A stretch of 52,469 nucleotides of DNA from Parachlamydiales bacterium (GCA_020051075.1 JAGVJP010000045.1:1-52469), one strand, 5' to 3'. Shown: positions 28,853-52,442, counted from the first letter of the stretch. Notes: generated from the sequence alone by a model not told the origin. Translations and numbers: made by a program.

Positions 28853-28935
28853 GCTCGGATGGTGGAATGGTAGACACAAGGGACTTAAAATCCCTTGGGG
28901 GCAACCCCGTGAAGGTTCGAGTCCTTTTCCGAGCA
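28853..28935 (+). tRNA. tRNA-Leu(TAA), CCA not encoded
   Basis: Acceptor GCTCGGA/TCCGAGC+A; anticodon arm AGGGA-CTTAAAA-TCCCT; long variable arm GGGG-GCAA-CCCC; T-loop GGTTCGAGTCC. Confidence 0.97.
28882..28935 (+). repeat. attL: 54-bp direct repeat (3' part of tRNA-Leu)
   Basis: Identical to 52389-52442. Confidence 0.97.
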
Positions 28936-28998
28936 TCTTTAATAATCAACGATTTACGTTGAGCTACATGACCTCCTAACCATTGAAATCAAACGACG

Positions 28999-29017
28999 TG
29001 GTCCACTAGTGGTCCAC
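28999..29017 (+). promoter_or_regulatory. Putative integrase arm-type binding sites (left)
   Basis: TGGTCCACTAGTGGTCCAC (11-bp period); near-identical TGGTCCACTGGTGGTCCAG at 52252-52270. Confidence 0.7.
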
Positions 29018-29042
29018 CTCGAAACAAATGGAGGTTGTTAGC

Positions 29043-30119
29043 ATGGCATCAATTCAAAAAAGAAGAAAAGCAAACGGTGAATTTTCCTATCGAGTTCGGA
29101 TAAGGGTTGAGGGAGCTCCTCTCATTACAGAAACTTATCCTACAAGAAAGGAAGCTCAAACTTTTGCTCGACGCATGGAGTCCGAAATTCGGGCTGGTCG
29201 ATATTTTGGAAGAGAAGAAGATAAAGAAAAAACTTTTTCAGAATTCATCGATAGATATATCGAGAATGAGCTTCCGAAGAACCCTAATGCATACAAGAAG
29301 CAAAAAATGATGTTAAGTTGGTGGAAAGAGCATCTAGGCCCTTACTATCTTTGTCACATAACATCACCAATGATCGCTGAACTTCGTGAAAAGCTTCTCA
29401 GTTCTATCACTTACCGTCATACTGTACGCACGGGATCATCGACTAATCGTTTTATCTCAGCTCTAAGCAGAGCCTTTAACGTTGCTGTGAAGGAGTGGAA
29501 CTGGATTAAAGAAAACCCTGTCGCCAAAATCACACGTCCTAAAGAAGGCAGGCCTCGTGAAAGATATCTTGAAAAGGAAGAGATCGATCGTCTTCTTGAA
29601 GAATGTCGCAAAAGCAAAAGTCCCCATCTTTACACAGTTGTGAGTTTGCTCCTAGCTACAGGAGCGAGAAAAGGCGAAGTTCTCGGCTTGGAGATTGGTG
29701 ATGTCGATTTCAATCGTGCGACAGTGACCTTCAGGAGAACAAAAAACGGAGAGACGAGAATCGTTCATTTAAGCTCCCAAGTTTTAGAGTTGCTGAAAAA
29801 TGAAAGAAAGAAACGTGCGGTGATTAGCGAATATTTCTTCCCAAGTGTTGACGGTACAAAACCGGCAGACATAAGAGATGCTTGGGAGAAAGCTGTACGA
29901 GATGCAGGATTGCAAAAAGATGTTTGTTTGCATACATTAAGACATACTGTAGCATCACATTTGAGTATGAAAGGATTTTCAGTTTTAGAGATAGGAAATA
30001 TATTAGGCCATAAGTCTATGTCGATGGTGAAGCGTTACAGTCACATGTCAACCGCATCAACTGCAAAGCCGCTTAATATGTTAAATGAAGAAATTTTAGG
30101 AAGTTTAGCATATGGCTAA
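29043..30119 (+). CDS. int: Tyrosine recombinase / phage-type integrase
   Basis: Full catalytic set: GARKGE (R), RTKNG (K), HTLRH, LGHKS, RYSH (Y); N-terminal arm-binding-like MASIQKR...YRVRIR; SD GGAGG. Confidence 0.96.
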   Translation: MASIQKRRKANGEFSYRVRIRVEGAPLITETYPTRKEAQTFARRMESEIRAGRYFGREEDKEKTFSEFIDRYIENELPKNPNAYKKQKMMLSWWKEHLGPYYLCHITSPMIAELREKLLSSITYRHTVRTGSSTNRFISALSRAFNVAVKEWNWIKENPVAKITRPKEGRPRERYLEKEEIDRLLEECRKSKSPHLYTVVSLLLATGARKGEVLGLEIGDVDFNRATVTFRRTKNGETRIVHLSSQVLELLKNERKKRAVISEYFFPSVDGTKPADIRDAWEKAVRDAGLQKDVCLHTLRHTVASHLSMKGFSVLEIGNILGHKSMSMVKRYSHMSTASTAKPLNMLNEEILGSLAYG

Positions 30120-31002
30120 AAAGCTCGTTTTGCCTGAATATGATTTATCTATCGATCTTGAAGACGCTGGTTTTAACCAGCGTCTTTCTTATGAGACTTT
30201 TTTAGAGTATTTCAAGTCAATTCCTGTAAGAGATTTAGAAGTCTCAATTAAAAAATTTGACGATGAAAGGGAGAAAGTGAATCAGGTTTTAAAAAAGTCT
30301 ATTCCCATTCTTAGAGAACAACCTTTACTGGCAGCATTTTTACTTTGGTGCAAGCGCAACTATGTCAAAAAAGGATTTCCTGATTATCCTAAAATGCTCA
30401 TTGATGAGCATATCATTTCTTTTGAGGATGAAAATGGAGACTTATTGGTTATCAAAAATATTCAGAAAAAATATCTCCTAAATATCATTGAAAACATGAG
30501 ATGCAGAAAAGATTTAGATAGCTTTAAGATTGAGATGCTTGTCCTCACTTTCATGGAATTTATCAGATGGATGTTTATCACAACTCGCATGTTCACTTTT
30601 GAAATCGAAGATCCGGATAGGAGTAGGATATCTAGACGAGCGTTAGAATATGATGAGTATATTACGTTCATTTCTAAATTGGACGATAAATGTAGACTTG
30701 TTGCTAAACTTCTCTTTTTTGGTGGCAGCAGAACTCTTTCAGAAATCCTAAATATTGAAGTGAAGGATGTCAACTTCCAAGACTGTTCTATCAGCTTTGA
30801 ATCATATAAAATATCATACCCAAAACATGTTTTAGAGGACATTAGAAGTCTTTCTATAACCTCAGAAACCGGAAAAATCTTTTCTGGTCGGAAAAATGCT
30901 GCATTGAATCCCGCAACCATTTTTCGAAAATTCAAAGAAGTGTCTTTACAACTTGGTTTGGACCCTGTTTACACGCCAAAAATTTTAACAACCGATATTT
31001 AG
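30112..31002 (+). CDS. Tyrosine-recombinase-fold protein lacking HxxR and the catalytic Tyr
   Basis: LVAKLLFFGGSRTLSEILNIEVKDVNF (box I-like); ends at YTPKILTTDI where TPHxLR...Y is expected; 8-nt overlap with int. Confidence 0.7.
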   Translation: MAKKLVLPEYDLSIDLEDAGFNQRLSYETFLEYFKSIPVRDLEVSIKKFDDEREKVNQVLKKSIPILREQPLLAAFLLWCKRNYVKKGFPDYPKMLIDEHIISFEDENGDLLVIKNIQKKYLLNIIENMRCRKDLDSFKIEMLVLTFMEFIRWMFITTRMFTFEIEDPDRSRISRRALEYDEYITFISKLDDKCRLVAKLLFFGGSRTLSEILNIEVKDVNFQDCSISFESYKISYPKHVLEDIRSLSITSETGKIFSGRKNAALNPATIFRKFKEVSLQLGLDPVYTPKILTTDI

Positions 31003-31095
31003 ACAATAACCTGCCGTGAAACTCACGATATGTTATTGCAAGAAATGTTGAAACGTGTTAACTTGCCTCTTGATTTCATGCGTTAGGAGGTAAAC

Positions 31096-31290
31096 ATGCA
31101 GCAAATAGAACAACTTATGGAGTTACGAGAGTATTGTCGTACACACAAGTGGCCACGGCTCCCTCAATGGCAGCACTGGATATATTCTCGAAATCCCATT
31201 GCGATTTCGTGTGTTAAAAAGGTTGGCGGTCGATATATAATTAACTTAGAAGCCTTTCAAAATCACATTCAGAATGCCACAATCGATTAG
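31096..31290 (+). CDS. Small excisionase-like DNA-binding protein
   Basis: 64 aa; strong SD AGGAGG; wing-like VKKVGGRYIINLEAF. Confidence 0.6.
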   Translation: MQQIEQLMELREYCRTHKWPRLPQWQHWIYSRNPIAISCVKKVGGRYIINLEAFQNHIQNATID

Positions 31291-31302
31291 GATGCGGGTC
31301 AC

Positions 31303-31807: not shown

Positions 31808-32080
31808 ATGTCAGAAAATCAAAAGTCTATAAGCGACATTTTCAAAGCTCGCTTGCCTGATAAGGAATTTATTTCCGTCTCAGAAATAGTGAAATCTGGA
31901 TTATTCAGATCACCAAACACAGTCTGGACATTACTACGGGCAGGTGTCTTGCCCTATTTACGAGCAAGCAAAAACACAACAACAATTCCGAAAGCGGCTC
32001 TAATACAATATATAGAACAATCCTACTCTGAATCCAGAGGACATTCATTGGGGGAGAATATCAATGAATTTGAGAATTGA
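31808..32080 (+). CDS. HTH (excisionase/AlpA-like) DNA-binding protein
   Basis: FISVSEIVKSGLFRSPNTVWTLLRAGVLPYLR...IPKAALIQYI; SD GAGGAG. Confidence 0.7.
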   Translation: MSENQKSISDIFKARLPDKEFISVSEIVKSGLFRSPNTVWTLLRAGVLPYLRASKNTTTIPKAALIQYIEQSYSESRGHSLGENINEFEN

Positions 32081-33416
32081 CTCAAATATCCTCTTAAAAT
32101 GTGATGACAAAGAAATCGTATCGAAGATCATATCTGAAAACACATTTGAGAATCCAAAGTATCTCAGCAATGAGAAGAACAGAAAGTGCAACTGGAACAC
32201 AGACCGATTCATTTCAACATGCCGTTATCAGGAAGGAAGCTTAGTCCTTCCTCGTGGATACATGAAAAGACTTAAGGAAATAATCCAAGAACACAATATT
32301 ACCGTAGAGGTTGAGGATCTCCGATCTACACAGCCAACGGAATATCCTGCATTGAAGGCAACACTGAGACCATATCAAGTGAGTGCGGTCGAAGAGGCTA
32401 TGAAGTCAGATGAAGGAGTTATAGTAAGCCCTACTGGAAGCGGAAAGTCTCTCATAGGAATTGAGATCATACGTAAAAGAGGGCAAAAGGCTCTCATCAT
32501 CGTACACCGTTTAGAGCTTGCAAAACAATGGGCTTCCGTCATCGAAGAGAGACTTGGATTAAAGGCCGGGGTCATAGGAGATGGCGAGTGGTCGGTAGAT
32601 GAGCAAATCACAATTGCGATGATTCAGACGTTAGCTTCCAGAGATGAAGAGATGAAAGCCTTGTCCAATGTATTTGGATTGATTCTACTTGATGAAGGTC
32701 ATCATGCTCCAGCATCGACTTTCTACGATGTCATAGGACTTCTCAATGCTAAATACCGATACTCAGTCAGTGCTACACCATCTCGTAGAGATGGCCTAGA
32801 AAAAATGATTTACTTATGTGTAGGACCAATTCTATCGAACATAGATAAACAAGAAGTCGAGGGAATGGGCTCAACCGTTCCGGTGACAGTTTATTCAATG
32901 AAAACAGGTTTCAAGCCTCCTTTGCTCAATTCTTGGTCAGAATATCTAGACTCCTTGACGGTCAATACAGAGAGAAACATGCGCATCATAGACCTTGTGC
33001 AACAGTCTGACGCTCCGACTCTCGTTCTAGTAGACCGCATTGCACATGCCGAGCAGCTATCAGATATGTTGACAAGACGAGACGTTAGTCATGTTGTCGC
33101 TCACGGAAAGCTAAGCAAAAGCAACCGAGAGATCGTCATGGACAAGATTAAGTCATCCAGGGTTACAGTTGGAACGACAGCTTTGCTTGGCGAGGGGCTT
33201 GACATTAGTGCTTGGAGTATATTGATAATGGCTGCCCCAATCTCCAGCGAGATTAAGTTGATGCAGGCGATTGGAAGGATTGTAAGGCCGGCTCACGGTA
33301 AAGAAAGAGCTTTTGTGTATGACCTGAAAGACGATTGCGGATTTGCTGGAGGAAGCTTTAACAAGCGATTAGAAATTTATAAGAAACACAAGATTTGGGT
33401 TGAATTCCGGAAATAA
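32064..33416 (+). CDS. SF2 DEAD/DEAH-box helicase (ResIII/UvsW-like)
   Basis: LRPYQ, SPTGSGKS, DEGHH, SATPSRRDG, LGEGLDI, QAIGRIVR. Confidence 0.93.
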   Translation: MNLRIDSNILLKCDDKEIVSKIISENTFENPKYLSNEKNRKCNWNTDRFISTCRYQEGSLVLPRGYMKRLKEIIQEHNITVEVEDLRSTQPTEYPALKATLRPYQVSAVEEAMKSDEGVIVSPTGSGKSLIGIEIIRKRGQKALIIVHRLELAKQWASVIEERLGLKAGVIGDGEWSVDEQITIAMIQTLASRDEEMKALSNVFGLILLDEGHHAPASTFYDVIGLLNAKYRYSVSATPSRRDGLEKMIYLCVGPILSNIDKQEVEGMGSTVPVTVYSMKTGFKPPLLNSWSEYLDSLTVNTERNMRIIDLVQQSDAPTLVLVDRIAHAEQLSDMLTRRDVSHVVAHGKLSKSNREIVMDKIKSSRVTVGTTALLGEGLDISAWSILIMAAPISSEIKLMQAIGRIVRPAHGKERAFVYDLKDDCGFAGGSFNKRLEIYKKHKIWVEFRK

Positions 33417-33436: not shown

Positions 33437-34648
33437 TTGAACGGCCAGATAACAAAGTTTGATGATATCATTATGACACAATCCATGTCAATTAAGCAAG
33501 ATGAAACAAGAGAGAATAAGCTTCGTAAAGCTAGCGGAAGAAGAGACGTTGATAAACTCTTAAGGACTATAGGCTGTTCCAAAGAAAACAACACAGAACA
33601 AATTAAAGATGAATCTAAGGAAACAAAGAATATCTTTGAACCACGAACGTTTAAAGAACTTATAGATTTACCCCCTAAAAAATGGTTTTTAGATCAAGTT
33701 TTTGGAGCAGGGGACATTGGCATGATCTATGGTGCACCAGGATGTGGAAAAACTTTCCTGGTTATCGATATGATAATAAACCTTTGTATAGGCGGAAAAT
33801 GGTCAAATAAATTTTGCGTAAATAAGCCTCTAAATGTAGCTTATTGCGCTGGCGAAGGCATTAGTGGCCTCCCATCTAGATTTGAATCAGCAGCTAAATA
33901 TTACAACATTAAAACTCTAAATAATTTTACTTTTTTCTCAACCCCTCCACAACTTTACGAAGGATATAATAGCGTTCAAGGTACTATTAAGACGTTTGTT
34001 GAAGAATGGGAAGACCGCCAGTTGATGAAAGAAGCCGAATCTTTAGATGTTCTCGTTATCGATACTCTCCATACAGCAACTGTCTCCGCAGATGAAAATA
34101 GCGCGCAAGATATGGGTAAAGTTTTGCAGTCTTGTCGATTTGTAGCTGATAAACTTGGATGCGCAGTAATTCTCGTTCATCACACAAATAAAGGAGGAAC
34201 TTCTGAAAGAGGAAGCTCGGCAATGAGAGGAGCAATGGATTTTATGATCGAGATAAAAAAAGGTAATACAGAAGTTGAAATGATCTGCTCTAAGTTGAAA
34301 GACGGTGAGCAATGGGAAACACAAAGGTTTAGTCTTATCCCTCAAGAAGGGGCTTCTAGCGTTCGTGTGCTCTGGAATGGTCCAATCAGTGATAAGCAGG
34401 GAACTAAGACAAAAGCAGATGATAAAAAGACTATTCTAGATCAAATGGAACGGCATTCTGGCATACGCTTTAATAGTAAATCGTTATCTGAAGTGCTCTT
34501 GAAATCACAGAGCTACACAACTAAATTATTAGAAGAGTTGGTCAAAGAGAAAAAATGTCAGAATGGATTGAGTGATCCAATGAGAGAAAAAAGTAGTAGA
34601 AATCCTTGGGTCTATTGGATCGACAGTTCTAAGGAAAAAAAGAATTAA
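33437..34648 (+). CDS. RepA-like (AAA_25, SF4-type) helicase; start uncertain
   Basis: IYGAPGCGKTF, AYCAGEG, LVIDTL, DENSAQDM, ILVHHTNK, ERGSSAM, KLKDG. Confidence 0.88.
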   Translation: MNGQITKFDDIIMTQSMSIKQDETRENKLRKASGRRDVDKLLRTIGCSKENNTEQIKDESKETKNIFEPRTFKELIDLPPKKWFLDQVFGAGDIGMIYGAPGCGKTFLVIDMIINLCIGGKWSNKFCVNKPLNVAYCAGEGISGLPSRFESAAKYYNIKTLNNFTFFSTPPQLYEGYNSVQGTIKTFVEEWEDRQLMKEAESLDVLVIDTLHTATVSADENSAQDMGKVLQSCRFVADKLGCAVILVHHTNKGGTSERGSSAMRGAMDFMIEIKKGNTEVEMICSKLKDGEQWETQRFSLIPQEGASSVRVLWNGPISDKQGTKTKADDKKTILDQMERHSGIRFNSKSLSEVLLKSQSYTTKLLEELVKEKKCQNGLSDPMREKSSRNPWVYWIDSSKEKKN

Positions 34649-34656: not shown

Positions 34657-34888
34657 ATTCACTTCATTTACCACCACTTCTACGAAGTAGTGGTGGTAAA
34701 TGAAGTGAATTTTAGGTTCATTTACTGGTAAATGACTGGTAAATGAACTTAGAGAACGATTCAAAATACTGTTTAGATGTTTAAGATAGTGTCTGTCAAA
34801 ATTCATTTACCAGTCATTTACCGCACAGAATAAGCTTTAAACAGGTTTGTTGAATTTATCAAAGTTCATTTACCGGTAAATGAACTTT
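34657..34888. promoter_or_regulatory. Putative replication origin with TCATTTAC iterons in inverted arrangement
   Basis: Nine copies of TCATTTAC/GTAAATGA; 21-bp-arm IR at 34657-34710; 28-bp perfect palindrome at 34861-34888; lies between helicase and primase. Confidence 0.7.
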
Positions 34889-34926: not shown

Positions 34927-36006
34927 ATGGATATTAGAGATTTGATTGAGGAATTGGCTTACACGCCAAGAAAGAAAGCTTCAACTCATGGGGGAGAATA
35001 TTCCTCGCCGTGTCCATTTTGCAAAGACGGGGATGATCGGTTCCTTATCTGGCCTCAGAGAAGCAATTCAAATGGAGAGTATGAAGGTGGTCGGTATAGT
35101 TGCCGTATCTGCGGAAAATATGGTAATGCAATTACATTTCTGTGCGACTTTCATGGACTTGGATACAAAGAGGCCTGTGCTCAACTTAGGATCGCTCCGA
35201 AACGCCATCTTGGGATTGAGAGAAAACGATCTGGGCCTAAATTTTCGATAGCTGAAGAGCCATCAAACACATGGAAAGAGAAAGCTTTCTCCTGTGTTAA
35301 CTGGTGTCATGAGAAGCTAATGAAGAATTCTAATGCATTATCTCATCTGACAGCGCAAAGAGGACTTAATTTAGAGACGATCACTCGATTCAAGGTCGGA
35401 ATCAATCCTGGAGAATTTGGACGAGATATTTTTAGAGAAAGAGAAACTTGGGGATTGCTTCCAGATAAAAAAGAAGATGGAACGTTTAAGAAGTTTTGGT
35501 TGCCTAAAGGTATTGTTATTCCAACTTTAGGGATAGATGGATCTGTCACCAAGATTAAAGTAAGAAGAACGGCATGGAAAGAAGGAGACAAACTGCCGAA
35601 GTATGCAGAGTTATCAGGTTCAAAGAGTTGTTATTCAATATATGGAGACACATGTTTGGACGTAGGATTCGTGATAGAAAGTGAGTTGGATGCTATTTTA
35701 GTTCAGCAATTCGCTTCTGATCTCGTCTATTGCATCGCTCTTGGTGGTTCTACTAAACCTTTGGATCTACACACTTATGAGCTTCTAAAGAAAACACCAA
35801 TGATTCTTTTCTGTCCTGATTTTGATGAGGCTGGAGCTTTGGCTTGGGTTCGATGGGAAAAAATGTTTCCTGGGATTCACTGTATTTTCACTCCTGATGG
35901 AAAGTCGGCTGGAGATGCGTATTTTGCAGGAGTCGATCTTCGCGAATGGATTATGGTTAACTTAACTGAAATAAGAAGAAAAATGAAAAAAAACATAGGA
36001 GTTTGA
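34927..36006 (+). CDS. DNA primase (zinc-binding domain plus TOPRIM)
   Basis: GGEYSSPCPFC...DRF...CRIC; IESELDA, ALGGS, PDFDEAG. Confidence 0.88.
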   Translation: MDIRDLIEELAYTPRKKASTHGGEYSSPCPFCKDGDDRFLIWPQRSNSNGEYEGGRYSCRICGKYGNAITFLCDFHGLGYKEACAQLRIAPKRHLGIERKRSGPKFSIAEEPSNTWKEKAFSCVNWCHEKLMKNSNALSHLTAQRGLNLETITRFKVGINPGEFGRDIFRERETWGLLPDKKEDGTFKKFWLPKGIVIPTLGIDGSVTKIKVRRTAWKEGDKLPKYAELSGSKSCYSIYGDTCLDVGFVIESELDAILVQQFASDLVYCIALGGSTKPLDLHTYELLKKTPMILFCPDFDEAGALAWVRWEKMFPGIHCIFTPDGKSAGDAYFAGVDLREWIMVNLTEIRRKMKKNIGV

Positions 36007-36007: not shown

Positions 36008-36322
36008 ATGAAAATTGAGAATTACAAACCAATCGGAAAAGGATTCCTTATCGGAAAGTTCGACATCAAAATCGAGAAGTGGGGTGAGTTGACACTTCGA
36101 GACTGCACGCTCTTTGAGAAGGATGGTAAAAGATGGATTTCACTGCCATCGAAAGAATTCTTAACAAAAGAGAATCAGAAGAAGCATTTCAGCTTGGTTA
36201 AGTTTTCTCCTGAAATCTTCGAGAGGTTGCAAAGAGCTGCACTAGACTTGCTTGCAAAAGAGACAGTCCAAGTCCCTCCAGCGACATACGATAACTACAC
36301 TGAACCGCAATTTCCATTTTAA
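36008..36322 (+). CDS. SpoVG-like nucleic-acid-binding protein with SSB-like C-terminal tail
   Basis: LTLRDCTLFEKDGKRWISLPSKEF; ends YTEPQFPF. Confidence 0.6.
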   Translation: MKIENYKPIGKGFLIGKFDIKIEKWGELTLRDCTLFEKDGKRWISLPSKEFLTKENQKKHFSLVKFSPEIFERLQRAALDLLAKETVQVPPATYDNYTEPQFPF

Positions 36323-36331
36323 GGAACATTT

Positions 36332-36805
36332 ATGAATATTGAAATTGTCGAATTTTTCCCAATCGAAATAGATCAAGGAACAGGGTATCTATCAGGAACA
36401 TTACGCATTTGTTTATCAGACATCGGAATCCATATCTTAGGCATTCATGTCACCAAACGGAAAAATTCCTGGTTTTTCTCATTGCCTGGAAGGGTAGCAA
36501 ACGATCATCGGAATGGAAAGCCGATTCGCTATCCGTTCATTTGTTTCGAAGATCGTGAGACCCAAAAGCAATTGATAGATGCCATTCGAGAGAAAGGGCG
36601 TGTTTTCATTGAGAAGAGACTTTCAGAGAATCCGCTTAATTCCCATCAAAAGGTAAAAGAGGATGAAGTCAATCCATTGTCACCTGAGGAGAAAAATAAT
36701 CCAGCACAGACCGAATTAAAGCCGATACCGAATACACAAAAGAGGGTTTGGGTAACTCCACCTCCACTAAAAAGAAGGCCAACAGCGTCCTATCGACGAA
36801 AATAA
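36332..36805 (+). CDS. Second SpoVG-like protein with basic tail
   Basis: MNIEIVEFFP..., IHILGIHVTKRKNSWFFSLPGR; SD AAGGA. Confidence 0.55.
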   Translation: MNIEIVEFFPIEIDQGTGYLSGTLRICLSDIGIHILGIHVTKRKNSWFFSLPGRVANDHRNGKPIRYPFICFEDRETQKQLIDAIREKGRVFIEKRLSENPLNSHQKVKEDEVNPLSPEEKNNPAQTELKPIPNTQKRVWVTPPPLKRRPTASYRRK

Positions 36806-36861
36806 GATTGAAAACATAAAGTAATTATTTCATAGTGTGAATGTAATTTATTTAGGAAGAG

Positions 36862-37359
36862 TTGTTTATGACAGAATTCGAAAAAAAATCCGAAGGCCTA
36901 AGGGCTATTGTTATCGAGTCAGATGGAAAAAGCTACGACATAAAACCAAGGAATGCATATTTCACTGAAGAAGAGCTTCGAGAGTTCTTTGTCGGGAATT
37001 TTGTTATCGACCTATTCTATGACGCAAACGTGTTGATCCACGATGAAGACTTAGGAACCATCGATTGGGATGCTCTTACAGAGAAACGAACTCCTGAATT
37101 CTTTTCGATGTCTGATTCGGAGGGCTTAGAGCAATTTGTCGATGATTTAGCCTCTCAAGGACACGATGTGAATAAGGTGGCTAGTATAATTAAAATGCAT
37201 TTTGAAGACAAAATGATATTCCCAATCATAGGACGAGCCATAATGTGTCCTATCGGCTTACTAGATCGATGCGTTCTTAAGCATATGATCTTCAGAAAGT
37301 ATCTGGAAGACAAAGAGTTTAATAACAAAGTCGCAAGCATGAGAGAGGAAGAAGGGTAA
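36862..37359 (+). CDS. Hypothetical protein resembling phage DUF3846 family
   Basis: IESDG...IKPRNAYFTEEEL...VG...IHDED...VNKVAS...IIGRAIMC pattern; start may be ATG 36868. Confidence 0.5.
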   Translation: MFMTEFEKKSEGLRAIVIESDGKSYDIKPRNAYFTEEELREFFVGNFVIDLFYDANVLIHDEDLGTIDWDALTEKRTPEFFSMSDSEGLEQFVDDLASQGHDVNKVASIIKMHFEDKMIFPIIGRAIMCPIGLLDRCVLKHMIFRKYLEDKEFNNKVASMREEEG

Positions 37360-37410: not shown

Positions 37411-37836
37411 ATGGTAGCACCTAGAGGACATCAGCCATACAACATATTTGGAGAAGGTGGTCGACCTAAGATTTACACTCAGGAAATGATAGAGAGCGAA
37501 GCAGATGCATTGCTTGATTGGCTATGGCAAGATGAAAAGAACTTTTTCATCGAAGATTTTTGCTTGTCGAGGGGGTATTCTTACAAGCGATTAAACGAAT
37601 GGGTGAAGGCAAACGAAAAGTTTTCAGAAGCTTATGACATGTTTAAAACTAAGCAAAGGGTTGTTTTGTACAAAGGCGGCATTTCAAAGAAATTCGGTTA
37701 TCCGATGTGTGCGTTGATTTTGTCTCACGATCACGGCATTCACCAGAAATCAGAGCAAAAAGTTACAGCTGATTTGAGCGCTAAATCACTCCTGGATGAG
37801 ATCATGGATCAATCTAGAGATTTAGTTTGTGAATGA
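37411..37836 (+). CDS. terS: Terminase small subunit (P22 gp3-like DNA-packaging protein)
   Basis: MVAPRG...GGRPKIYT, IEDFCLSRGYSYKRLNEW, EKFSEAYD, C-terminal SEQKV strand; SD AAGGAGG. Confidence 0.75.
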   Translation: MVAPRGHQPYNIFGEGGRPKIYTQEMIESEADALLDWLWQDEKNFFIEDFCLSRGYSYKRLNEWVKANEKFSEAYDMFKTKQRVVLYKGGISKKFGYPMCALILSHDHGIHQKSEQKVTADLSAKSLLDEIMDQSRDLVCE

Positions 37837-38018
37837 TCTGGAAAAACTCAAGTCCTAGTTCAAGATAACTTTTGTGTAATCAGCAAAATTCATTCATACA
37901 TACTCCCCATCGCGATTTCCGTAAGATAAATTATGCTAAAAATTACTTGATTTTTCTAGGAAAAACCTTGCTCATATGTTAAACTGGAGACTTACAAACT
38001 CCTAAGTGAGAGGTTCTT

Positions 38019-44190: not shown

Positions 44191-44404
44191 ATCCTACTAT
44201 ATTCATAAGTTCTTTCTGAAGATTTTTCTGATCTCTATGCGCGCATTTTGCAAAATACTTATCACGCTGTTTCAGGTCCTTTGCAGCTTGATTTATTTGA
44301 ATTTTATTATATTGTTTTAGATCCTTTGCAGCCTGCTTTATTTGCATCTTATCGCGATCTTTGGCCATCCGGACTAGAGCTTTATCAATTGGACTCAATG
44401 CCAT
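44189..44404 (-). CDS. Small basic protein with an internal duplication
   Basis: 71 aa; QIKQAAKDLKQ / QINQAAKDLKQ; strong SD AAAGGAGG. Confidence 0.6.
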   Translation of the reverse strand: MALSPIDKALVRMAKDRDKMQIKQAAKDLKQYNKIQINQAAKDLKQRDKYFAKCAHRDQKNLQKELMNIVG

Positions 44405-44591
44405 GATAGCCTCCTTTAATATTAAAACGAGATTTTATCTCTTGTCCGGTAATGTACCAATGTTTTCCAAGCTTTGTTGCCTTTATTTTATTTTCCCTTA
44501 AAAGTAGGCGTACACTTGAAATCGGAAGGCTTAAGATTTTGCTTAACTCAGGCACTTTATACAGCCTGTGGTTGTCTATGCTTAAATGCAT
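44385..44591 (-). CDS. HTH_17 / excisionase-family DNA-binding protein
   Basis: LYKVPELSKILSLPISSVRLLLRENKIKATKLGKHWYI; SD AAGGAG before ATG 44591. Confidence 0.8.
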   Translation of the reverse strand: MHLSIDNHRLYKVPELSKILSLPISSVRLLLRENKIKATKLGKHWYITGQEIKSRFNIKGGYHGIESN

Positions 44592-45074
44592 ATATTTCTC
44601 CTTGAGAAAATTTCCTTTGCCATCACAACCTAACATAAAATCGGTTAACTTGACTGATTCGAATGATAGAGCACAATGCTAAACCATCTATAATGGACTC
44701 AAAAACAAGTAAACCGTAAAAAATATAGAAAATGCATTTCTAATTGAGTTGAAGATAGAATGGAGTGCCGAAAACACGACTTGACTTGTAGGCGAATGGA
44801 ATGGCTGTTTTAGCAGTGTAAACCATTCACAATGCTATTTCGGCGAAGCCTCTGATCCAATGCCATACTCAGAATGAGTTAAGAAAACTTAACATCAATT
44901 AAGATTTCTTGCAATCCAATTCCTTCAGGTATTTGCAGTTTAAGGGGTGGAAGGGGGTATCCGTCAATGCATTCCTTTTGAGACATATTTTAAAGTAGAT
45001 TCCAGAGGTTTTTTCTGATAGTTGTTCAGTATTGTCATGCGGTGAAAAACACATGGGTTATAGTAAAATATTTA

Positions 45075-45752: not shown

Positions 45753-46136
45753 TTATTTTATTGGACGTCCGGGCTTAAGCTCGGACCGTCTTTTCTGGAA
45801 TGGCTTTCCATTCTTTGCTTCCGCGATTGAAAGAGCAGCTTTTAAGGCTTCTTCCACGAATTGAGCTACTGTCAGTCGATCCCAATAAACGCAATTCTTT
45901 ACTCTCTCAATAGTGTCCTTGCTAATTTGGACCGTCATACGTTCTTTTTCTTGAGATTTTTGCCTTTCAGGAACATTAAGAGAACTTAGTTGATTTCGCT
46001 TGTTTCCATTCAAGTTCATGTTCTTCGTAGACTTTTCAATCTTCTGTGTTGGCTTCGTCAAGAAGTCGATAGGGTTGCCATTAAGCTGATCCATTAAATC
46101 ACTTCCAATTTTAGTCTTTCTTTCATTTTTACTCAT
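45753..46136 (-). CDS. Ribbon-helix-helix partition adaptor (ParG/CopG-like)
   Basis: Flexible N-terminus, then KERMTVQISKDTIERVK...TVAQFVEEAL; ATGA overlap with parA. Confidence 0.7.
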   Translation of the reverse strand: MSKNERKTKIGSDLMDQLNGNPIDFLTKPTQKIEKSTKNMNLNGNKRNQLSSLNVPERQKSQEKERMTVQISKDTIERVKNCVYWDRLTVAQFVEEALKAALSIAEAKNGKPFQKRRSELKPGRPIK

Positions 46137-46894
46137 TTGTTAAGCCCTCGTTTCATAATTAATTTAGCCAACGCACGGAAATCCTCCGCACCTGCTCCTT
46201 TCGGATCATAAACAGAGATAGGTTCGCAAAATGATGGACATTCAGCTAACTTGATGCTCTCTCGAATGTAGACTGGAAGAAGCTTATCACCTAGTCGCTT
46301 CTTTAGCTCTAACAGCACATCCTGAGATAATCTGGTTCTCTTATCAAAACGACAAGGCAATATCCCGAGGATTTCTAAGTCTGGATTAAGCCTTTCACGA
46401 ACCACCTGAATCTTCTTTGTGACTTGCATAAGGCCTTGAAGAGCCATGATTCTTGTTTCAACTGGAATGAGAACAGAATGTGCTGCACTCATAGCATTCA
46501 AAGACAAAAGCCCTAACGAAGGTGGAGTGTCAATCAAGCAATAGTCCCAACTCTTCCCAAGCTTTCGAAGATGATTCTTCAATATCATTTCGGCCCCAGC
46601 TTCTGATGAAAGCGTCTTATCAGCACCAACTAACCACTGGCTAGCGGGAATAACATCTAACCCTGTAAACCTGGATTTGACGATAATATCAGTAATACTG
46701 ATATTTTCTGTAAAGACATTAAATAAGCCTTTGGAATCATTCTGGCATTTGAGCCACAAACTGCTCGAGCCCTGAGGGTTAAGATCGATAACGAGAACCC
46801 TCTTTTTCTTCTCAGCCAAAGCAGCAGCTAGGTTTACTGTAAGGGTCGATTTTCCGCAACCACCCTTCTGATTCGCTATCGTGATTATTTGCAT
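46133..46894 (-). CDS. parA: ParA/Soj-family ATPase
   Basis: NQKGGCGKST deviant Walker A, IDTPPSLG, IRESIKLAECPS. Confidence 0.93.
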   Translation of the reverse strand: MQIITIANQKGGCGKSTLTVNLAAALAEKKKRVLVIDLNPQGSSSLWLKCQNDSKGLFNVFTENISITDIIVKSRFTGLDVIPASQWLVGADKTLSSEAGAEMILKNHLRKLGKSWDYCLIDTPPSLGLLSLNAMSAAHSVLIPVETRIMALQGLMQVTKKIQVVRERLNPDLEILGILPCRFDKRTRLSQDVLLELKKRLGDKLLPVYIRESIKLAECPSFCEPISVYDPKGAGAEDFRALAKLIMKRGLNK

Positions 46895-47071: not shown

Positions 47072-47752
47072 ATGGAAGTCATTGGTTACATTAGAGTAAG
47101 TACAGATCAGCAAGCCGACTCAGGGCTAGGCCTGGAAGCACAAATCAAGTCTATGAAGGATTATGCTAATAAATCAGGCAGTGAAATCAGCCATATTTTC
47201 CGCGATGAGGGAATTAGTGGAGCATCATCGATAGAAGAACGCCCGGGCCTTATGGAGGCTATTAACAGACTAAAGAAAGGGGATATCCTGCTCGTTGCAA
47301 AGCGTGATCGTTTGGCACGAGGCGATCAAATGGTTCTCATTCAAATGGCGGTTAACAAAAAGAAAGCGAAAATTATCAGCTGTGCTGATGAAGGGACACA
47401 AGGCGATCAAGACGACCCTATGTCCTATATGATGCGTGGAATGACTGACCTATTTGCAGGATTCGAGCGTCTATTGATCAAATCCAGAACGAAATCAGCT
47501 TTACGTGCAAAAAAAGATCGTGGTGAGCGAGTTGGACACATTCCATTTGGATACAGACTATCCAAAGACGAAATTCATCTAGAAGAAAACGAACTAGAAC
47601 AAAGCATCCTAAATCAAATAAGAGAATTACGAGAAAGCGGTTTTTCAATTCGGAAAATAGCCTTTGAAATGAACAAAAGAGGAGCTTTTAACAGAGGACA
47701 GGCAGAATGGAATCACGCAAGCATTCATCGTATGCTAAAGATGGCAGCTTAG
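47072..47752 (+). CDS. Serine recombinase / resolvase
   Basis: GYIRVSTDQQ, DEGISGA, RPGL, KRDRLAR, FERLLIKSRT, IPFGY. Confidence 0.93.
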   Translation: MEVIGYIRVSTDQQADSGLGLEAQIKSMKDYANKSGSEISHIFRDEGISGASSIEERPGLMEAINRLKKGDILLVAKRDRLARGDQMVLIQMAVNKKKAKIISCADEGTQGDQDDPMSYMMRGMTDLFAGFERLLIKSRTKSALRAKKDRGERVGHIPFGYRLSKDEIHLEENELEQSILNQIRELRESGFSIRKIAFEMNKRGAFNRGQAEWNHASIHRMLKMAA

Positions 47753-48147
47753 AGAAGAAGTTAGATCAGTTAATCGATGATATAAAAAAGCTTCCAAACA
47801 AGCGACAGAAGTTATTGGAAGACTTAATGAAAGACCGTCTTTACGACTCCAAAGAAGCATGTGAGATCTTATCAATCTCTTTACCATCACTGCGTCGATC
47901 TATCAAAATTGGACGCATAAAAACGGTTTACGTAGGCAAATATCTACGCATACCAGCCCATGAGATTAATCGCCTAGTTAAAGGTGAAGAAGTTCTCACT
48001 GTTGAAGAAGCAGCAAGCATCCTGAATGTCGGAAAAATAATGATCAGGAATCTGATCAAGTCCGGTCAGATGGAAGCCTTCAGATTTGCCGATAAGGGTC
48101 CATTTAAGATTCCAAGAAAAGAGGTCGAGAAATTCATGAAGGGCTAA
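47707..48147 (+). CDS. Tandem HTH_17 (excisionase-type) DNA-binding protein; start may be ATG ~47827
   Basis: LYDSKEACEILSISLPSLRR... and LTVEEAASILNVGKIMIRNLIKSG. Confidence 0.8.
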   Translation: MESRKHSSYAKDGSLEKKLDQLIDDIKKLPNKRQKLLEDLMKDRLYDSKEACEILSISLPSLRRSIKIGRIKTVYVGKYLRIPAHEINRLVKGEEVLTVEEAASILNVGKIMIRNLIKSGQMEAFRFADKGPFKIPRKEVEKFMKG

Positions 48148-48219: not shown

Positions 48220-48603
48220 TTAGTTTCTCGCTTCGGGAGTTTTGGGATTTGATGACATGACAACATGTATTGCTGGCAAAGTTGTCTGAACAGTATGTCT
48301 CTTCAACGTTAGTTCAATGTCATAGTTTAAATTATTCAAAAATTTCATGAGTCTTTCGATCGTAAATTCAGAAAGCAATCCTCTAATGATTTTGGAAACT
48401 TTAGGTTGATCAATTCCGATGATTTCAGCTGCTTCTTGCTGGGTCCTATTGTTCTCTTTAATGATAGCTGTAATCGCCATTGCGAGTCCTGCTTTTGTGT
48501 CCGCTTCTTGAGGATTGGGAAACCCGAAATCAGAGTAGACATTTCCTGAACCGATTGTATATTCAATCTCTTCAGCTTTATTTTTTTGTTTTCTTTTTTC
48601 CAT
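48220..48603 (-). CDS. XRE-family HTH antitoxin (HigA-like)
   Basis: GSGNVYSDFGF, TQQEAAEIIGIDQPKVSKI, FTIERLMKFL. Confidence 0.88.
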   Translation of the reverse strand: MEKRKQKNKAEEIEYTIGSGNVYSDFGFPNPQEADTKAGLAMAITAIIKENNRTQQEAAEIIGIDQPKVSKIIRGLLSEFTIERLMKFLNNLNYDIELTLKRHTVQTTLPAIHVVMSSNPKTPEARN

Positions 48604-48845
48604 AAAGTTCCTTTTGAATGGCCTCTACCCACTTTAATCTTTGGTTGATCAAGTCCATATCTGGTTTAGGGGTTGCAATACCTTTCTTGCTTTTTTTCTG
48701 AAAGATATGCAGCACATAAATTGCTTCGTCAAATCGCACCGTATAAACCTCTCTGAATGTGCTATTTCTTTCATCGGCTACGACTTCCATTATACCCGAT
48801 CATTAAACCCTTTCAAAGGCTTTGCATCTTCATGTTGGGCTCCTT
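48578..48845 (-). pseudogene. RelE/HigB (Gp49-like) toxin remnant, 5'-truncated and frameshifted
   Basis: GAQHEDAKPLKGF in one frame, then SGIMEVV...VYTVRFDEAIYVLHIFQKKSKKGIATPK in another (shift ~48800); no homologous N-terminus upstream. Confidence 0.75.
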
Positions 48846-49033: not shown

Positions 49034-50110
49034 ATGAAATTATTAAAGAAAAGTGTTTTTATTTTAGCTACGGTTGTGTTTTTCTTCTGTCATGTAGTTT
49101 TAGAAGCATTCACATTAAAACACATGGTTGTTGATCTTGGTACTTTAGAGAGTGATGAAAGTGTTGCCTATGCGATAAACGATTTTGATCAGGTTGTTGG
49201 AACATACAAACTTAATGGAACTTCTTATGTATTTTTATGGAGCCAGAAAGAAGGGGTCTCTTTCGTTGATTTGCCAATTTCATCGACCCCAAAAGTAATC
49301 AACAACAACAAACAAATTGCAGGGCAGTATAAAGAAAACGGGTTTGAAAGAGGTTTTTTTTATGATCCTGTTACGGGATTTTGCGATATTGGTTCTTTAG
49401 GGGGAGCAAATACTTGGGTAATGGACATGAACGCCAAAGGACAGGTAGTAGGCTATTCAGAAACTGGAAACCTAAGCCATTTACGTAATAGCACTAAAGA
49501 GATTCATGCATTTATTTGGTTCGAAGGAGCAATGAATGATCTCGGAGTATTACATGGGGGTATTGGTTTAGGAGGAGATGAAAGTGTAGCTGTAGGAATA
49601 AGTGATCATGGAGATATCGTAGGCTATTCTAACTACACATTAGTTTATAAAGGTAAAACATTATCTAGCGTTTATAAAGGAGTATCGTGGAAAAACGGGC
49701 CTGCGGAAGAACTTTTTCCAGAAACTCAACCATCTTATTTTAGTAAAGCTTTGTCTATCAGCAGGGATGGGAAAATCACCCTTGTTCGTCAAATAGAATC
49801 AAATCGCTTTGAATCTCTGATGTACGATCCACTTACAAAAAATATAAAACTTTTTGGAACGTCTAGTGGTGGGCCTCCTCACGGTGTTATAAAAAATAAC
49901 GATAAGGATGTTATCATTCACAGTTATTTGGGTCATTGCATAGTATCAAAACAGGAGTCAGGTGGGTACAATGGTATTCAAATAATCCCTTCAAATCCTT
50001 TTTGGAATAAATTCGAAGTTTTCTATGGAATTAACAACGCAAACAAAATGGTTGGAAAAGCAAAAAGTATGTATGGAGAATGTCATGCAGTACTTGTTAT
50101 TCTAGAGTAA
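49034..50110 (+). CDS. Secreted HAF-repeat protein
   Basis: Signal peptide; DLGTLESDESVAYAINDFDQVVG, DIGSLGG...MNAKGQVVGYS, HAFIW...DLGVL. Confidence 0.85.
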   Translation: MKLLKKSVFILATVVFFFCHVVLEAFTLKHMVVDLGTLESDESVAYAINDFDQVVGTYKLNGTSYVFLWSQKEGVSFVDLPISSTPKVINNNKQIAGQYKENGFERGFFYDPVTGFCDIGSLGGANTWVMDMNAKGQVVGYSETGNLSHLRNSTKEIHAFIWFEGAMNDLGVLHGGIGLGGDESVAVGISDHGDIVGYSNYTLVYKGKTLSSVYKGVSWKNGPAEELFPETQPSYFSKALSISRDGKITLVRQIESNRFESLMYDPLTKNIKLFGTSSGGPPHGVIKNNDKDVIIHSYLGHCIVSKQESGGYNGIQIIPSNPFWNKFEVFYGINNANKMVGKAKSMYGECHAVLVILE

Positions 50111-50342: not shown

Positions 50343-50783
50343 CTATAGATACTTAGAGTTTAATGCGGAATCTACAGAGAGGTTCGGAAATATTCTCTTT
50401 AATAGCGAGAGAGTTTTCAACGAAGGATTGCATTTTTTGCTTTCCAATCTTTGATAGCTATAAATATTATCAAATCCTAGCTTCTCTGCAACTTCTTTTT
50501 GTGTAAGACCTTGTTGAATTCTGTTGTATCTAACCATGAATGCAAAAGCGATTGAAGTGTCTACAGGGACTTCTACAACGCTACGCGATAGAGTAATAGT
50601 GTCATCAGGGAGAGGAGCCAATTTTTTTGAATCTTCTGGTTCTTCAATATAAAGATTCAGAGCCTCTTCCATATTTCTCCGTAGCTCCTCCATAGAATCA
50701 GCTTGAGTGAAGCATCCCGACAATTCAATACACTCTGCCCAGAATCCTTTTCCTTCTCTGTGTACTTTGAAATGATATTTCAT
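50343..50783 (-). CDS. hicB: HicB antitoxin with C-terminal XRE HTH
   Basis: FWAECIELSGCFTQADSMEELRRNMEEAL; GLTQKEVAEKLG. Confidence 0.9.
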   Translation of the reverse strand: MKYHFKVHREGKGFWAECIELSGCFTQADSMEELRRNMEEALNLYIEEPEDSKKLAPLPDDTITLSRSVVEVPVDTSIAFAFMVRYNRIQQGLTQKEVAEKLGFDNIYSYQRLESKKCNPSLKTLSLLKRIFPNLSVDSALNSKYL

Positions 50784-50796
50784 AGGTTGAATTCCT

Positions 50797-50997
50797 CTAT
50801 TTATTTTCTTCTAATTTCTTTTTAAGAGAATGTTCCAGCCCTTTTTTTAATTCCTTGTGATTAGGAATAGTTACCGTGTCATTTCCCTTAAACAGTTTCC
50901 AATGACTCCCTTTTCCTGCCCCAGGAACAAGCTCATAGCCCGCCTTATAAAAGAGTTTTCGCATTTCTTTTCCACTGATAGGCACTCTTATCTCCAA
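50797..50997 (-). CDS. hicA: HicA mRNA interferase toxin
   Basis: GKGSHWKL, VTIPNHKELKKG. Confidence 0.9.
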   Translation of the reverse strand: MEIRVPISGKEMRKLFYKAGYELVPGAGKGSHWKLFKGNDTVTIPNHKELKKGLEHSLKKKLEENK

Positions 50998-51161
50998 TTG
51001 CTATATTTCTATATTACCAAATATATTTGGTAGAGTCAATCGTTTTTTGACTCATTGCTAACCTAGCCTTTCGCGTCTAGGGATACTGTTTCGAACTATC
51101 ATCACTTAATTTTTCGATCTTCCAAGAGCACACATGGCCTTCTATCGCAAAATTTAAGATT

Positions 51162-51509
51162 TTAGAGGACCATAGGAAGAAGATCCGGGATTTTAGAATT
51201 TATGGATTTTTCAACAGCATGTGCTGCTTTTTCAGGGAAACAATAAAACAGGTAGCAAAATAAACCCGAAATGAACATGGACAGCACCAACATGCAAAAC
51301 CAAAATTTAGGACTTTTTAATAAAGCATTAATGAAAATTGTATCAGCATCTTTACGATTTCCGAGAGCCGCGAGTATTATTTGGATCGCATCTTCATGTC
51401 CGAGGCACTCAAGGATTTCCTCCTTTTTTGAAGACCTGTAAGGTTCAATGTTTGTAGTGCTGTTTGCTATAGTTTCGTATTTACTAATTTTTTGCTTTTT
51501 CTTATTCAT
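51162..51509 (-). CDS. Small single-TM protein translationally coupled to the ImmA-like protease
   Basis: ATG at 51509 overlaps the upstream stop by 8 nt; TM FWFCMLVLSMFISGLFCYLFYCF. Confidence 0.6.
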   Translation of the reverse strand: MNKKKQKISKYETIANSTTNIEPYRSSKKEEILECLGHEDAIQIILAALGNRKDADTIFINALLKSPKFWFCMLVLSMFISGLFCYLFYCFPEKAAHAVEKSINSKIPDLLPMVL

Positions 51510-51984
51510 TGAGCAAGCTCCGTCGGAAAGCAATAACTGCTTCAGAAACTCGAAAAATATTTGCAATCTCTTTATCAGAGATGTTCTGATCGACTAGATT
51601 CTGAAGAAAACAAAGAGGAACTAACAAATTTGCCGCAAAGCAATTCGCTTCCTGTTCTAATGGATTTTTCTCTCCTTCTATTGGCCTTCGGTAAAGTACA
51701 ACAAGATCGCGGTCTGCTTCAATTTCTTTTTGATGAAGAATCCAGTGGCCCAATTCATGAGCAATTGTAAATCGTTGTCGAGAAATCGAGTCATATTTGT
51801 TAACAAGAATCAGTTTTTTTTCAAAATCAATAAATCCGGAAACATTTTTTTCCGCAAACTCCGCAACAGCGAGATTTAACCCTTCCCCTTCGGCAATTTC
51901 TTCCAAATATATAGGAGGAGATGTGATAAAATTCTTATTTATTATCCTTTCGGCTTCATTCTTTGCCATGTTGAAATCTGCCAT
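51502..51984 (-). CDS. ImmA/IrrE-family (M78) zinc metallopeptidase without HTH fusion
   Basis: RQRFTIAHELGHWILH, EQEANCFAANLLVP, ANIFRVSEAVIAFR. Confidence 0.92.
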   Translation of the reverse strand: MADFNMAKNEAERIINKNFITSPPIYLEEIAEGEGLNLAVAEFAEKNVSGFIDFEKKLILVNKYDSISRQRFTIAHELGHWILHQKEIEADRDLVVLYRRPIEGEKNPLEQEANCFAANLLVPLCFLQNLVDQNISDKEIANIFRVSEAVIAFRRSLLNE

Positions 51985-52251
51985 TTGGTTACCCTTTCAA
52001 ATAAATCTTTAGTCCCTACGATCTGGGAAAAAACGTTAGCATAAAGTTGGTTTAGCGCTCAAGGGAAACAACATTAGAGAGGTTTTTTTCATCTTGATAT
52101 ATCGAATCAAAAGTTCTAAGTGTACACAGTAATTGGAAATCGTCAAGGTGCTCTTTTTTATAGGAATTTTTCGATTGTGTTTGTCATGGCCTGCGGGTGT
52201 GGTCTGATATGATTTTCAGAAAGAAGTTCGTTTTTGTTAGATCGTTCTTTT

Positions 52252-52270
52252 TGGTCCACTGGTGGTCCAG
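52252..52270 (+). promoter_or_regulatory. Putative integrase arm-type binding sites (right)
   Basis: TGGTCCACTGGTGGTCCAG, matching 28999-29017 in the same orientation. Confidence 0.7.
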
Positions 52271-52388
52271 TACACGGCGCGATTTCTCATTACGCTACCT
52301 AACAAAACAATATATTTAAAACCCGGGGCATGTTATCCTGTATCGTTGGAAAGGACGTCGTGATATGTGGCGTAATGAAGATACTGGA

Positions 52389-52442
52389 GACTTAAAATCC
52401 CTTGGGGGCAACCCCGTGAAGGTTCGAGTCCTTTTCCGAGCA
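52389..52442 (+). repeat. attR: duplicated 3' 54 bp of tRNA-Leu
   Basis: GACTTAAAATCCCTTGGGGGCAACCCCGTGAAGGTTCGAGTCCTTTTCCGAGCA, identical to 28882-28935. Confidence 0.97.

Follow-up and report, generated by a model that had tools for sequence, protein, structure and literature searches.

A capsid-less, small-terminase-bearing element at a tRNA-Leu gene of a Parachlamydiaceae bacterium belongs to a conserved terS-terL family with features of phage satellites

We analyzed a 52,469-nucleotide stretch of DNA from a Parachlamydiales bacterium (GCA_020051075.1, JAGVJP010000045.1), hereafter the window, and in particular the element occupying its positions 28936-52442. This element is a terL-less member of a conserved and undescribed family of capsid-less elements that integrate at tRNA genes and carry the small and large terminase genes terS and terL, with relatives of 10-19.4 kb. 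We call it terL-less because 20 of 25 related loci carry a 507-aa large terminase (TerL) that both the island and the whole genome lack. Members of the family integrate at tRNA 3' ends by means of a tyrosine integrase, and possess their own helicase and primase, an iteron origin and a phage-type packaging module; with moderate confidence, we regard the element and its family as phage satellites. The window is the complete contig C69 of genome G000, an assembly of 2.94 Mb in 133 contigs that is 99.9% complete with 5.7% contamination. Throughout the text, G designates Chlamydiota genomes (G000 being the window's own), C contigs, L loci and X sequencing runs.

Results

A small terminase gene without its large-terminase partner

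The gene at 37411-37836 (+ strand) encodes a small terminase (TerS) of the P22 gp3/Sf6 gp1 type. Taken alone, its product has a weak PHROGs match (phrog_3064, 3.6e-4) and no Pfam match, relaxed E-values included. The family profile was more informative: 21 homologs were found and, among the 22 aligned members, 10 match PF16677 GP3_package (best 4.7e-7). When the AlphaFold2 (AF2) model of the protein (predicted local distance difference test, pLDDT, 71.9) was re-aligned with VIA, it matched P22 gp3 (3p9a) with a Z of 6.4 over 81 residues (root-mean-square deviation 3.5) and Sf6 gp1 (4dzj, 3hef) with a Z of 5.3-5.6, the top unrelated chain reaching 4.1. Foldseek gave no significant match with the same model (E about 3), so that terminase chains were told apart by the VIA re-alignment only, and a PDB sequence search with the TerS profile returned nothing under E 0.1. 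Gene context is decisive here, as a TerL follows the TerS homolog in 25 of 25 related loci. Fold and position are both those of a P22/Sf6-type TerS, with TerL downstream in the relatives and absent in the window, and we conclude, in agreement with an initial annotation of this DNA, that 37411-37836 is a genuine TerS.

The 25 related TerS loci came from genome contigs (13) and from IMG/VR (12). In the 20 loci mentioned above, the TerS homolog is directly followed by one type of 507-aa protein (identity 50-73% in 19 and 34% in 1), which is a large terminase by its matches to phrog_2 (3e-32) and phrog_2472 (1.3e-87); in the other 5, the next large open reading frame (ORF) after TerS is a TerL of a different PHROG family. 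At the position where relatives have terL (about 1.5 kb), the window has a gap of 182 bp (37837-38018), and tblastn with 36 TerLs (E<=0.1) detected no TerL remnant in this gap or anywhere in the element. The window is the sole TerS locus of 26 without TerL. We also looked at a phylum sample of 401 Chlamydiota genomes, where a TerL of at least 440 aa was found at 24 loci (seven of them duplicating loci already collected), 22 with a family TerS adjacent. The initial annotation had read the element as a complete satellite resembling the phage-inducible chromosomal islands (PICIs). Of that reading, the integration, the lack of a recognisable capsid and the possession of an integrase, replication genes, iterons and TerS still stand, while "complete" had to be abandoned, considering that terL directly follows terS in most related and full-length phylum loci and that the window has only the 182 bp.

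Relatives at tRNA genes keep the packaging module and lack recognisable capsid genes

The first relative found was G228, which alone among the 400 phylum genomes scored has a homolog of the 353-aa protein described below. Its element of 17.8 kb, bounded by a 54-bp repeat at tRNA-Tyr, has the same gene order as the window: int, int-like, primase-helicase, SF2 helicase, TerS, TerL, a 358-aa homolog of the 353-aa protein and a 1479-aa LPD38 protein. Two other elements are likewise bounded by repeats, L015 (16.6 kb, 58-bp repeat at tRNA-Leu(taa)) and L024 (about 10 kb, 62-bp repeat at tRNA-Tyr), the latter with int, replication genes, TerS and TerL only. L025 is an IMG/VR contig of 19,505 bp that we consider a circular assembly, of 19.4 kb, because of its 127-bp terminal repeat; it carries int, int-like, helicase, primase, TerS, TerL, 189-aa and 282-aa ORFs, the polyvalent protein and an ImmA pair. 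A complete tRNA-Tyr-like gene lies beside the L025 integrase (L025:2266-2341), indicating that the attP holds a whole tRNA copy and not merely the 3' part. In the relatives, the order of the module is terS, terL, a gene of about 190 aa, the 353-aa helical protein and the giant polyvalent protein.

No portal, head or tail gene was detected in G228 by Pfam and PHROGs from int to past attR, nor in the other relatives by PHROGs in ORFs of at least 100 aa downstream of TerS other than the polyvalent ORFs; the left halves of the relatives other than G228 were labelled by BLAST only. The same PHROG scan revealed portals directly after related TerLs in L028, L029, L031 and L036, and in L036 also a major head and a tail protein. 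The presence of terL, portal or capsid genes between terS and position 38019 in close relatives had been named beforehand as the mark of a deleted prophage. Results showed that terL is indeed there, and that portal, capsid and tail genes are not recognisable. As this holds throughout the relatives, several of which are circular or have att repeats at their ends, a deleted prophage is not the best reading. What emerges is a stable family that lacks a capsid and conserves its packaging module, rather than repeated random decay.

Some loci showed a less regular organization. In L018, TerL is split into 303 and 225 aa (L018:516-2088) and the polyvalent gene into 225 and 1344 aa (L018:4450-9354), suggesting frameshifts or decay in some family members. 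G235, a complete genome of the same family as the window's host, contains a 15.2-kb island (G235:C1:2793753-2808966; L085, L086) with a 43-bp repeat at tRNA-Thr(cgt), a family TerS and TerL and transporter-like cargo, suggestive of domestication or decay of a family member.

The element is bounded by perfect att repeats

The sole tRNA that ARAGORN found in the window is the integration target, tRNA-Leu(taa) (28852-28937, + strand). The 3' part of this gene (attL core, 28882-28935) is identical to a partial tRNA copy at 52389-52442 (attR core). These 54 bp are the longest exact repeat in the window, and the fact that it pairs the 3' part of a tRNA with a partial copy 23.5 kb downstream is a classical sign of integrase-mediated insertion. 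Exact-repeat search and ARAGORN thus agree on the perfect 54-bp att repeats previously proposed as the limits of the element. The host was placed in the Parachlamydiaceae by its SecY (12967-14337), 86-87% identical to proteins of Parachlamydiaceae bacterium, Parachlamydia sp. and Chlamydiales bacterium; compared with the loci of named Parachlamydiaceae metagenome-assembled genomes, the flanks shared no synteny except the tRNA.

Contig C69 ends 27 bp past attR, and contig C33 shares 91 bp with that end and carries on beyond it. Just past attR, C33:1-4277 (L010) holds remnants of a similar element, with a 37-aa piece 74% identical to the C-terminus of the polyvalent protein and additional HigB/HigA-like copies (90-97% and 67-86% identical), which suggests tandem accretion and decay at tRNA-Leu(taa). 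A second att-like copy, with 1 mismatch and identical 17 preceding bases, was found in the last 140 bases (reverse complement) of contig C113 (L011), where the right flank has single-nucleotide polymorphisms and the upstream genes differ. This copy suggests a further element inserted at that tRNA in a strain that was co-assembled, consistent with the 5.7% contamination.

The missing terL can also be explained by considering the element as a decaying, stranded remnant, in which terL loss ended mobility and the toxin-antitoxin and partition genes keep the DNA in place. We judge this explanation unlikely, although it has to be taken seriously: the only TerS locus without TerL has no compatible TerL in its genome, decayed pieces of a similar element lie past attR on C33, and TerL fragments interrupted by stops occur commonly among the phylum's genomes. 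On the contrary, int, both helicases, the primase, TerS and the 353-aa and 1689-aa genes are all full-length open frames, the two att copies have remained identical over 54 bp, and the absence of terL is clean, with no remnant. Moreover, classical PICIs function with TerS alone.

A helical protein and a giant polyvalent protein follow the terminase position

Downstream of the gap, 38019-39080 (+ strand) encodes a 353-aa all-helical protein of a rare phage-associated family, with 4 homologs in a search of 5.8 billion proteins and 51 by profile among 1.84 billion representatives; the family (28 members) corresponds to no Pfam family. By profile, a member is found after TerL in G228, L027, L018, L013, L019 and L025. 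One contig of 8,954 bp encodes both a TerS 67% identical and a 353-aa homolog 72% identical to those of the window. The AF2 model (pLDDT 78.6) shows long helices, a linker of acidic character and, at the C-terminus, three short helices, and had no Foldseek match at E<=0.001. The ESM Atlas gave leads below 0.9 only, among them viral hypotheticals (0.89) and a "phage DNA ejection protein" cluster (0.86). With no Pfam family, no Foldseek match and Atlas leads all below 0.9, a scaffold-like or ejection-like protein is something that we only infer.

The next gene (39077-44146, + strand) encodes a large polyvalent protein of 1689 aa with an LPD38 domain (PF18857 5.7e-36, 124.8 bits for a cut-off of 27; phrog_9854 6.9e-88), the only domain reaching the Pfam threshold. 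HExxH motifs are present at residues 537 and 683, together with weak SprT and peptidase signals. The protein has the features by which large polyvalent proteins are recognized, namely a very large size, an LPD domain and a location on a mobile element. Its C-terminal two thirds (residues ~600-1688; 597-1687 for L025) are 79% identical in L025 and L018. With residues 1-1100, the ESM Atlas returned other polyvalent clusters, all under 0.9, and no MuF domain was found by relaxed-E Pfam in the ORFs without family match.

According to the part of Iyer et al. 2017 (PMC5512222) considered here, about 35% of polyvalent proteins are in portal-terminase phages, presumably packaged inside the head, and about 40% on conjugative elements. 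In the short-tailed phage phi24B, an LPD38-bearing protein of 2811 aa, gp47, was found in virions by proteomics and an ejection role was proposed (preprint 10.64898/2026.04.10.717836, in the sections considered). From what those sections describe, the window's protein and gp47 share LPD38 and metallopeptidase motifs, a length above 1600 aa and a gene beside packaging genes, while the element that carries the window's gene has no capsid of its own. A TerS of the P22/Sf6 type together with an LPD38 protein fits short-tailed-phage packaging, in line with the podovirus-like character suggested by the initial annotation.

The element could instead be an autonomous virus of small size, with capsid, portal and tail proteins diverged beyond recognition, which we find highly improbable. 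In its favour, no fold is assigned to some 1100 polyvalent residues, to the 353-aa protein or to about five small ORFs, and IMG/VR classes the relatives as viral contigs. However, the circular L025 has just two unassigned ORFs above 150 aa apart from the polyvalent protein, and the 353-aa protein is modelled as long helices throughout, unlike the HK97 and the portal folds. Where related TerLs occur in genuine phages, moreover, they adjoin readily recognized portals.

Integrase, replication genes and a candidate origin

Thirty ORFs were scanned with Pfam and PHROGs, 24 of them also with NCBIfam. At the left end, a tyrosine integrase of 363 aa (29028-30119, + strand; PF00589 1.1e-34, phrog_1 3.8e-74) shares 62-66% identity with its counterparts in L015 and L013, which likewise sit at tRNA-Leu(taa). 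It is followed by a second, divergent tyrosine-recombinase-like protein of 296 aa (30112-31002, + strand; NF040815 6.4e-9), whose gene is kept beside int in relatives (homologs in L013, L015 and L025). After two small ORFs on the + strand comes a small HTH_17 protein of the MerR/excisionase type, ahead of the replication genes (31808-32080, + strand; PF12728 9.2e-5, under the Pfam cut-off). PICIs have an AlpA-type activator or an Stl-type repressor next to int; in the element, this HTH_17 gene lies in the left arm and an ImmA peptidase gene at the opposite end.

The replication genes start with an SF2 (ResIII/DEAD) helicase (32064-33416, + strand; PF04851 4.8e-26, phrog_16 7.6e-78), with homologs in G228, L025, L027 and L030 (49-63% identity), and an AAA_25 RepA/DnaB-like ATPase, a candidate replicative helicase (33437-34648, + strand; PF13481 4.5e-30, phrog_906 6e-40). 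A DnaG-type primase with zinc ribbon and Toprim follows (34927-36006, + strand; TIGR01391 1.9e-14, phrog_849 7.1e-22). The 279-bp spacer separating the ATPase and primase genes is occupied by an iteron array, a candidate origin, with 9 copies of TCATTTACY on both strands (34664-34883); the motif has 10 matches in the whole window, for an expectation of 1.21, and 0 of 100 shuffles reached 10. Between primase and terS there are three ORFs of 104, 157 and 165 aa without family match (36008-37359, + strand), the first two being kept in relatives (homologs in G228, L013, L025, L027 and L030).

The library scans recovered the gene run of the initial annotation (int, HTH, helicases, primase, terS and two further genes), and the clustering of 9 of the 10 iteron matches agrees with the origin that it had placed there. 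Its "SSB-like" label (single-stranded DNA-binding protein) for 36008-37359 was dropped, since Pfam, PHROGs and NCBIfam gave no such signal for these ORFs and relaxed-E Pfam gave noise only. The element had also been described as co-directional, which is correct for the + strand up to 44146 and incorrect for the last 8 kb, with genes on both strands.

Structural genes and other terminases in the host genome

As previously claimed, the 30 ORFs have no family match to terL, portal, capsid, tail, lysis, relaxase or type IV secretion system (T4SS) genes in Pfam, PHROGs or NCBIfam. PICIs have no structural or lysis genes; in the element, the LPD38 protein is of a kind found in virions, as far as the sections of the phi24B preprint tell, and the 353-aa protein is unassigned. 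The microvirus capsid PF02305 had no match in the genome either, a result of no weight since the control for this search matched nowhere.

Two contigs of G000 carry islands with a TerL of another type. C84:345-7721 (L008) contains RusA, a ParB-methyltransferase fusion, a 162-aa ORF, TerL (phrog_979 6.6e-164), a P-type ATPase and an integrase; C95:2-3337 (L009) contains RusA, the ParB-methyltransferase fusion and TerL (phrog_979 5.5e-129), with no counterpart of the 162-aa ORF among the ORFs listed. No portal was found after TerL in either island, and C95 could simply duplicate C84 or represent a variant strain.

Packaging genes and tailed-phage modules across the phylum

Among the 401 Chlamydiota genomes, a family TerL match at E<=1e-5 was found in 58, and a full-length TerL at least 50% identical in 23, many of the others being fragments with stops. 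The portal phrog_156 was present in 16 of the 401 genomes and in none of the 23 with full-length TerL. In 8 genomes, a single contig carried both portal and TerL, separated by no more than about 3 kb. For example, G014:C46 has TerS, a 42% identical TerL, a portal (1.5e-146) and two virion structural proteins, and G217:C16 has TerL, portal, scaffold and a major head protein (4.7e-64). In G285, a block of about 30 kb without G000 homologs (G285:C1:49000-80000; L082-L084) sits in a 137-kb chlamydial contig and carries a 692-aa portal, a RusA homolog and a TerL broken into two parts that lie 3.5 kb from each other. Its right flank (83.5-95 kb) has genes 45-71% identical to chromosomal genes of G000, and the left flank a few scattered G000-matching ORFs with no housekeeping run seen. 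These flanks indicate an integrated prophage-like region and not obviously a mis-binned phage contig.

We placed the TerLs in a quick maximum-likelihood tree of 36 rows, four of them labelled as portal-linked; the row of G014 (L072) is portal-linked too, its label having been lost in de-duplication. The portal-linked L028 and L029 fell within the capsid-less clade (L013, L024, L019 and others) with a Shimodaira-Hasegawa-like approximate likelihood ratio of 100, and G014, L036 and G217 were on long branches outside it. No capsid was recognized in the 5-6 kb downstream of the L028 and L029 portals. The inference of a tailed helper phage, made in the initial annotation, gains plausibility from the tailed-phage head modules (TerL and portal, sometimes with a major head protein) of 16 of the 401 genomes, without a helper having been found in this genome.

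Junctions in sequencing runs

None of the sequencing runs contains half of the sampled words (best share 0.20), and junctions were seen via Logan contigs only. In X2, the depths of the four att arms were 27.8 (host left), 24.7 (element left), 26.9 (element right) and 35.5 (host right), as would be seen for an integrated copy in a related strain. A single Logan contig of 357 bp in X3 joins the right end via att to the left end up to 29184, and 30 of the 30 shown letters equal 52359-52388. This gives a hint only of an attP-type junction, from a circle or a tandem.

The right-hand 8 kb

The right arm (44.2-52.4 kb), passed over in the initial annotation, has genes on mixed strands. It starts with an HTH_17/excisionase-family DNA-binding protein (44385-44636, - strand; PF12728 9.2e-8), followed by a small Arc/RHH-like (ribbon-helix-helix) partner of ParA (45753-46136, - strand; phrog_2639 1.5e-3) and the ParA partition ATPase itself (46133-46894, - strand; PF13614 5.5e-53, phrog_164 9.5e-61). 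A serine recombinase of 226 aa overlaps a double-HTH_17 protein of 146 aa (47072-48147, + strand; PF00239 1.6e-32 and TIGR01764 1.2e-17). Two toxin-antitoxin pairs, a HigB/Gp49-like toxin with its HTH_37 antitoxin (48220-48790, - strand; PF05973 1.9e-12, PF13744 2.6e-21) and HicA/HicB (50343-50997, - strand; PF07927 2e-11, PF15919 1.9e-5), flank a HAF-repeat protein, considered cargo (49034-50110, + strand; TIGR02913 1.4e-19). At the end, an ImmA/IrrE M78 peptidase (51502-51984) and its 134-aa partner (51162-51984 for the pair, - strand; PF06114 3.2e-19) are kept as a pair in L025. Elsewhere in the window, seven tandem 18-bp units at 686-847, within ORF 514-1383, belong to a host repeat protein with no relation to the island.

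The gene content of this arm raises the question of an integrated plasmid-like or mobilisable element moving by conjugation, with the polyvalent protein delivered by conjugation and the terminase an incidental phage leftover. ParA/RHH, the serine recombinase and the two toxin-antitoxin pairs would suit such an element, as would the share of polyvalent proteins on conjugative elements (the about 40% given in the part of Iyer et al. 2017, PMC5512222, cited above). Nevertheless, we consider it improbable: the element gave no match to any relaxase, coupling-protein or T4SS family, PF02534 and PF03432 are not found anywhere in the window's genome, and the order terS-terL-353-aa protein-polyvalent protein is kept in divergent relatives, which is unlike a leftover.

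Discussion

Considering the family as phage satellites, we propose that, after excision and replication, the family's terminase would recognize element DNA and pack it into procapsids of a tailed helper phage, with the polyvalent protein co-packaged and injected along with the DNA. The right-hand 8 kb would serve maintenance, regulation and cargo. As the window copy has all conserved parts but terL, it would either borrow the TerL of a helper, like PICIs that have TerS only, or be packaging-defective.

PICIs, including the Staphylococcus aureus pathogenicity islands (SaPIs), have an integrase with att sites, primase/helicase genes with an iteron origin and often TerS, without structural or lysis genes; those of Gram-negative bacteria are largely one-directional, and the typical size is about 10-19 kb. 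The window element has the integrase at its end with att repeats, its own helicase and primase with iterons in between, a terS that can account for packaging redirection, no recognisable genes for structure or lysis, and a left arm that runs largely in one direction. Homologs of cpm, ppi and rpp were not detected in the element. It differs from PICIs in that its family normally has TerL too, and in its giant polyvalent protein, ParA, resolvase, toxin-antitoxin pairs and chlamydial host. Capsid-forming PICIs (cf-PICIs) carry both terminase subunits plus capsid, portal, protease and head-tail connectors. Both terminase subunits are common to them and to the window's family, while no capsid, portal, protease or connectors of its own were recognized in the element or in the bounded relatives.

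Marine virion-encapsidated integrative mobile elements (VEIMEs), which with the tycheposons are among the nearest known systems, have tyrosine or serine recombinases, primase/helicases and sometimes TerS, were found inside virus particles, and have hosts that include Verrucomicrobia (Eppley et al. 2022, PMC9618062). The portion of that paper considered mentions small terminases and "motor-like ATPases", with no terS-terL-polyvalent module and no chlamydial hosts. Terminase genes in chlamydiae are already in print: in the parts consulted, the island PnaK_GI2 of Protochlamydia naegleriophila, at tRNA-Thr, includes a terminase along with a potassium transporter (Bertelli et al. 2016, PMC5010888), and a "phage group" with terminase occurs on two chlamydial plasmids (Koestlbacher et al. 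2021, PMC7846284). These terminases are likewise in tRNA-linked islands or plasmids, and those parts describe no satellite architecture, TerS or family. Comparable to them is the phrog_979 TerL that adjoins a P-type ATPase and an integrase in the window's genome. In open-access papers and bioRxiv, supplements excluded, we found no description of satellite-type elements or of tailed helper phages for Chlamydiota.

Several observations weigh against phage satellites. No helper phage was identified: the window's genome has no phrog_156 portal, PF04860 portal or PF05065 capsid, and phrog_156 is found in 0 of the 46 genomes of its family. No packaging, excision or induction was observed, and the X3 junction is only a hint because its depth is 3.9 and an assembly-graph artefact is possible. 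The element, with 23.5 kb between att cores, is above the typical PICI size, and ParA, resolvase and toxin-antitoxin pairs are plasmid-like. Considering that the 353-aa protein and about 1100 polyvalent residues are without fold, a structural role may have escaped recognition. Certain family members look decayed, TerL fragments with stops occur in many genomes, and BLAST found no homolog of the window integrase in the G235 island. Finally, no homolog of the 507-aa TerL exists elsewhere in the window's genome, so this copy may be a dead end.

Even so, we put forward, tentatively and as somewhat short of probable, the wider proposal that Chlamydiales host widespread satellites, which combine both terminase subunits with a polyvalent protein injected from the virion and have no capsid, that these prey on uncultured tailed phages whose TerL-portal-head modules are visible in the phylum, and that the window copy dropped terL. 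To our knowledge, the only characterized chlamydial phages are ssDNA microviruses. Known gene carriers in chlamydiae are plasmids and a few conjugative islands, and gene movement among these obligate intracellular bacteria is poorly understood. Packaging-gene elements in about 6% and tailed-phage modules in about 4% of the sampled genomes point to transduction-like traffic in amoeba-associated chlamydiae. A terS-terL layout without capsid would be a new satellite build, between PICIs that have TerS only and capsid-forming PICIs, and the loci, att sites and marker genes are now concrete handles for seeking helper phages in cultures and viromes.

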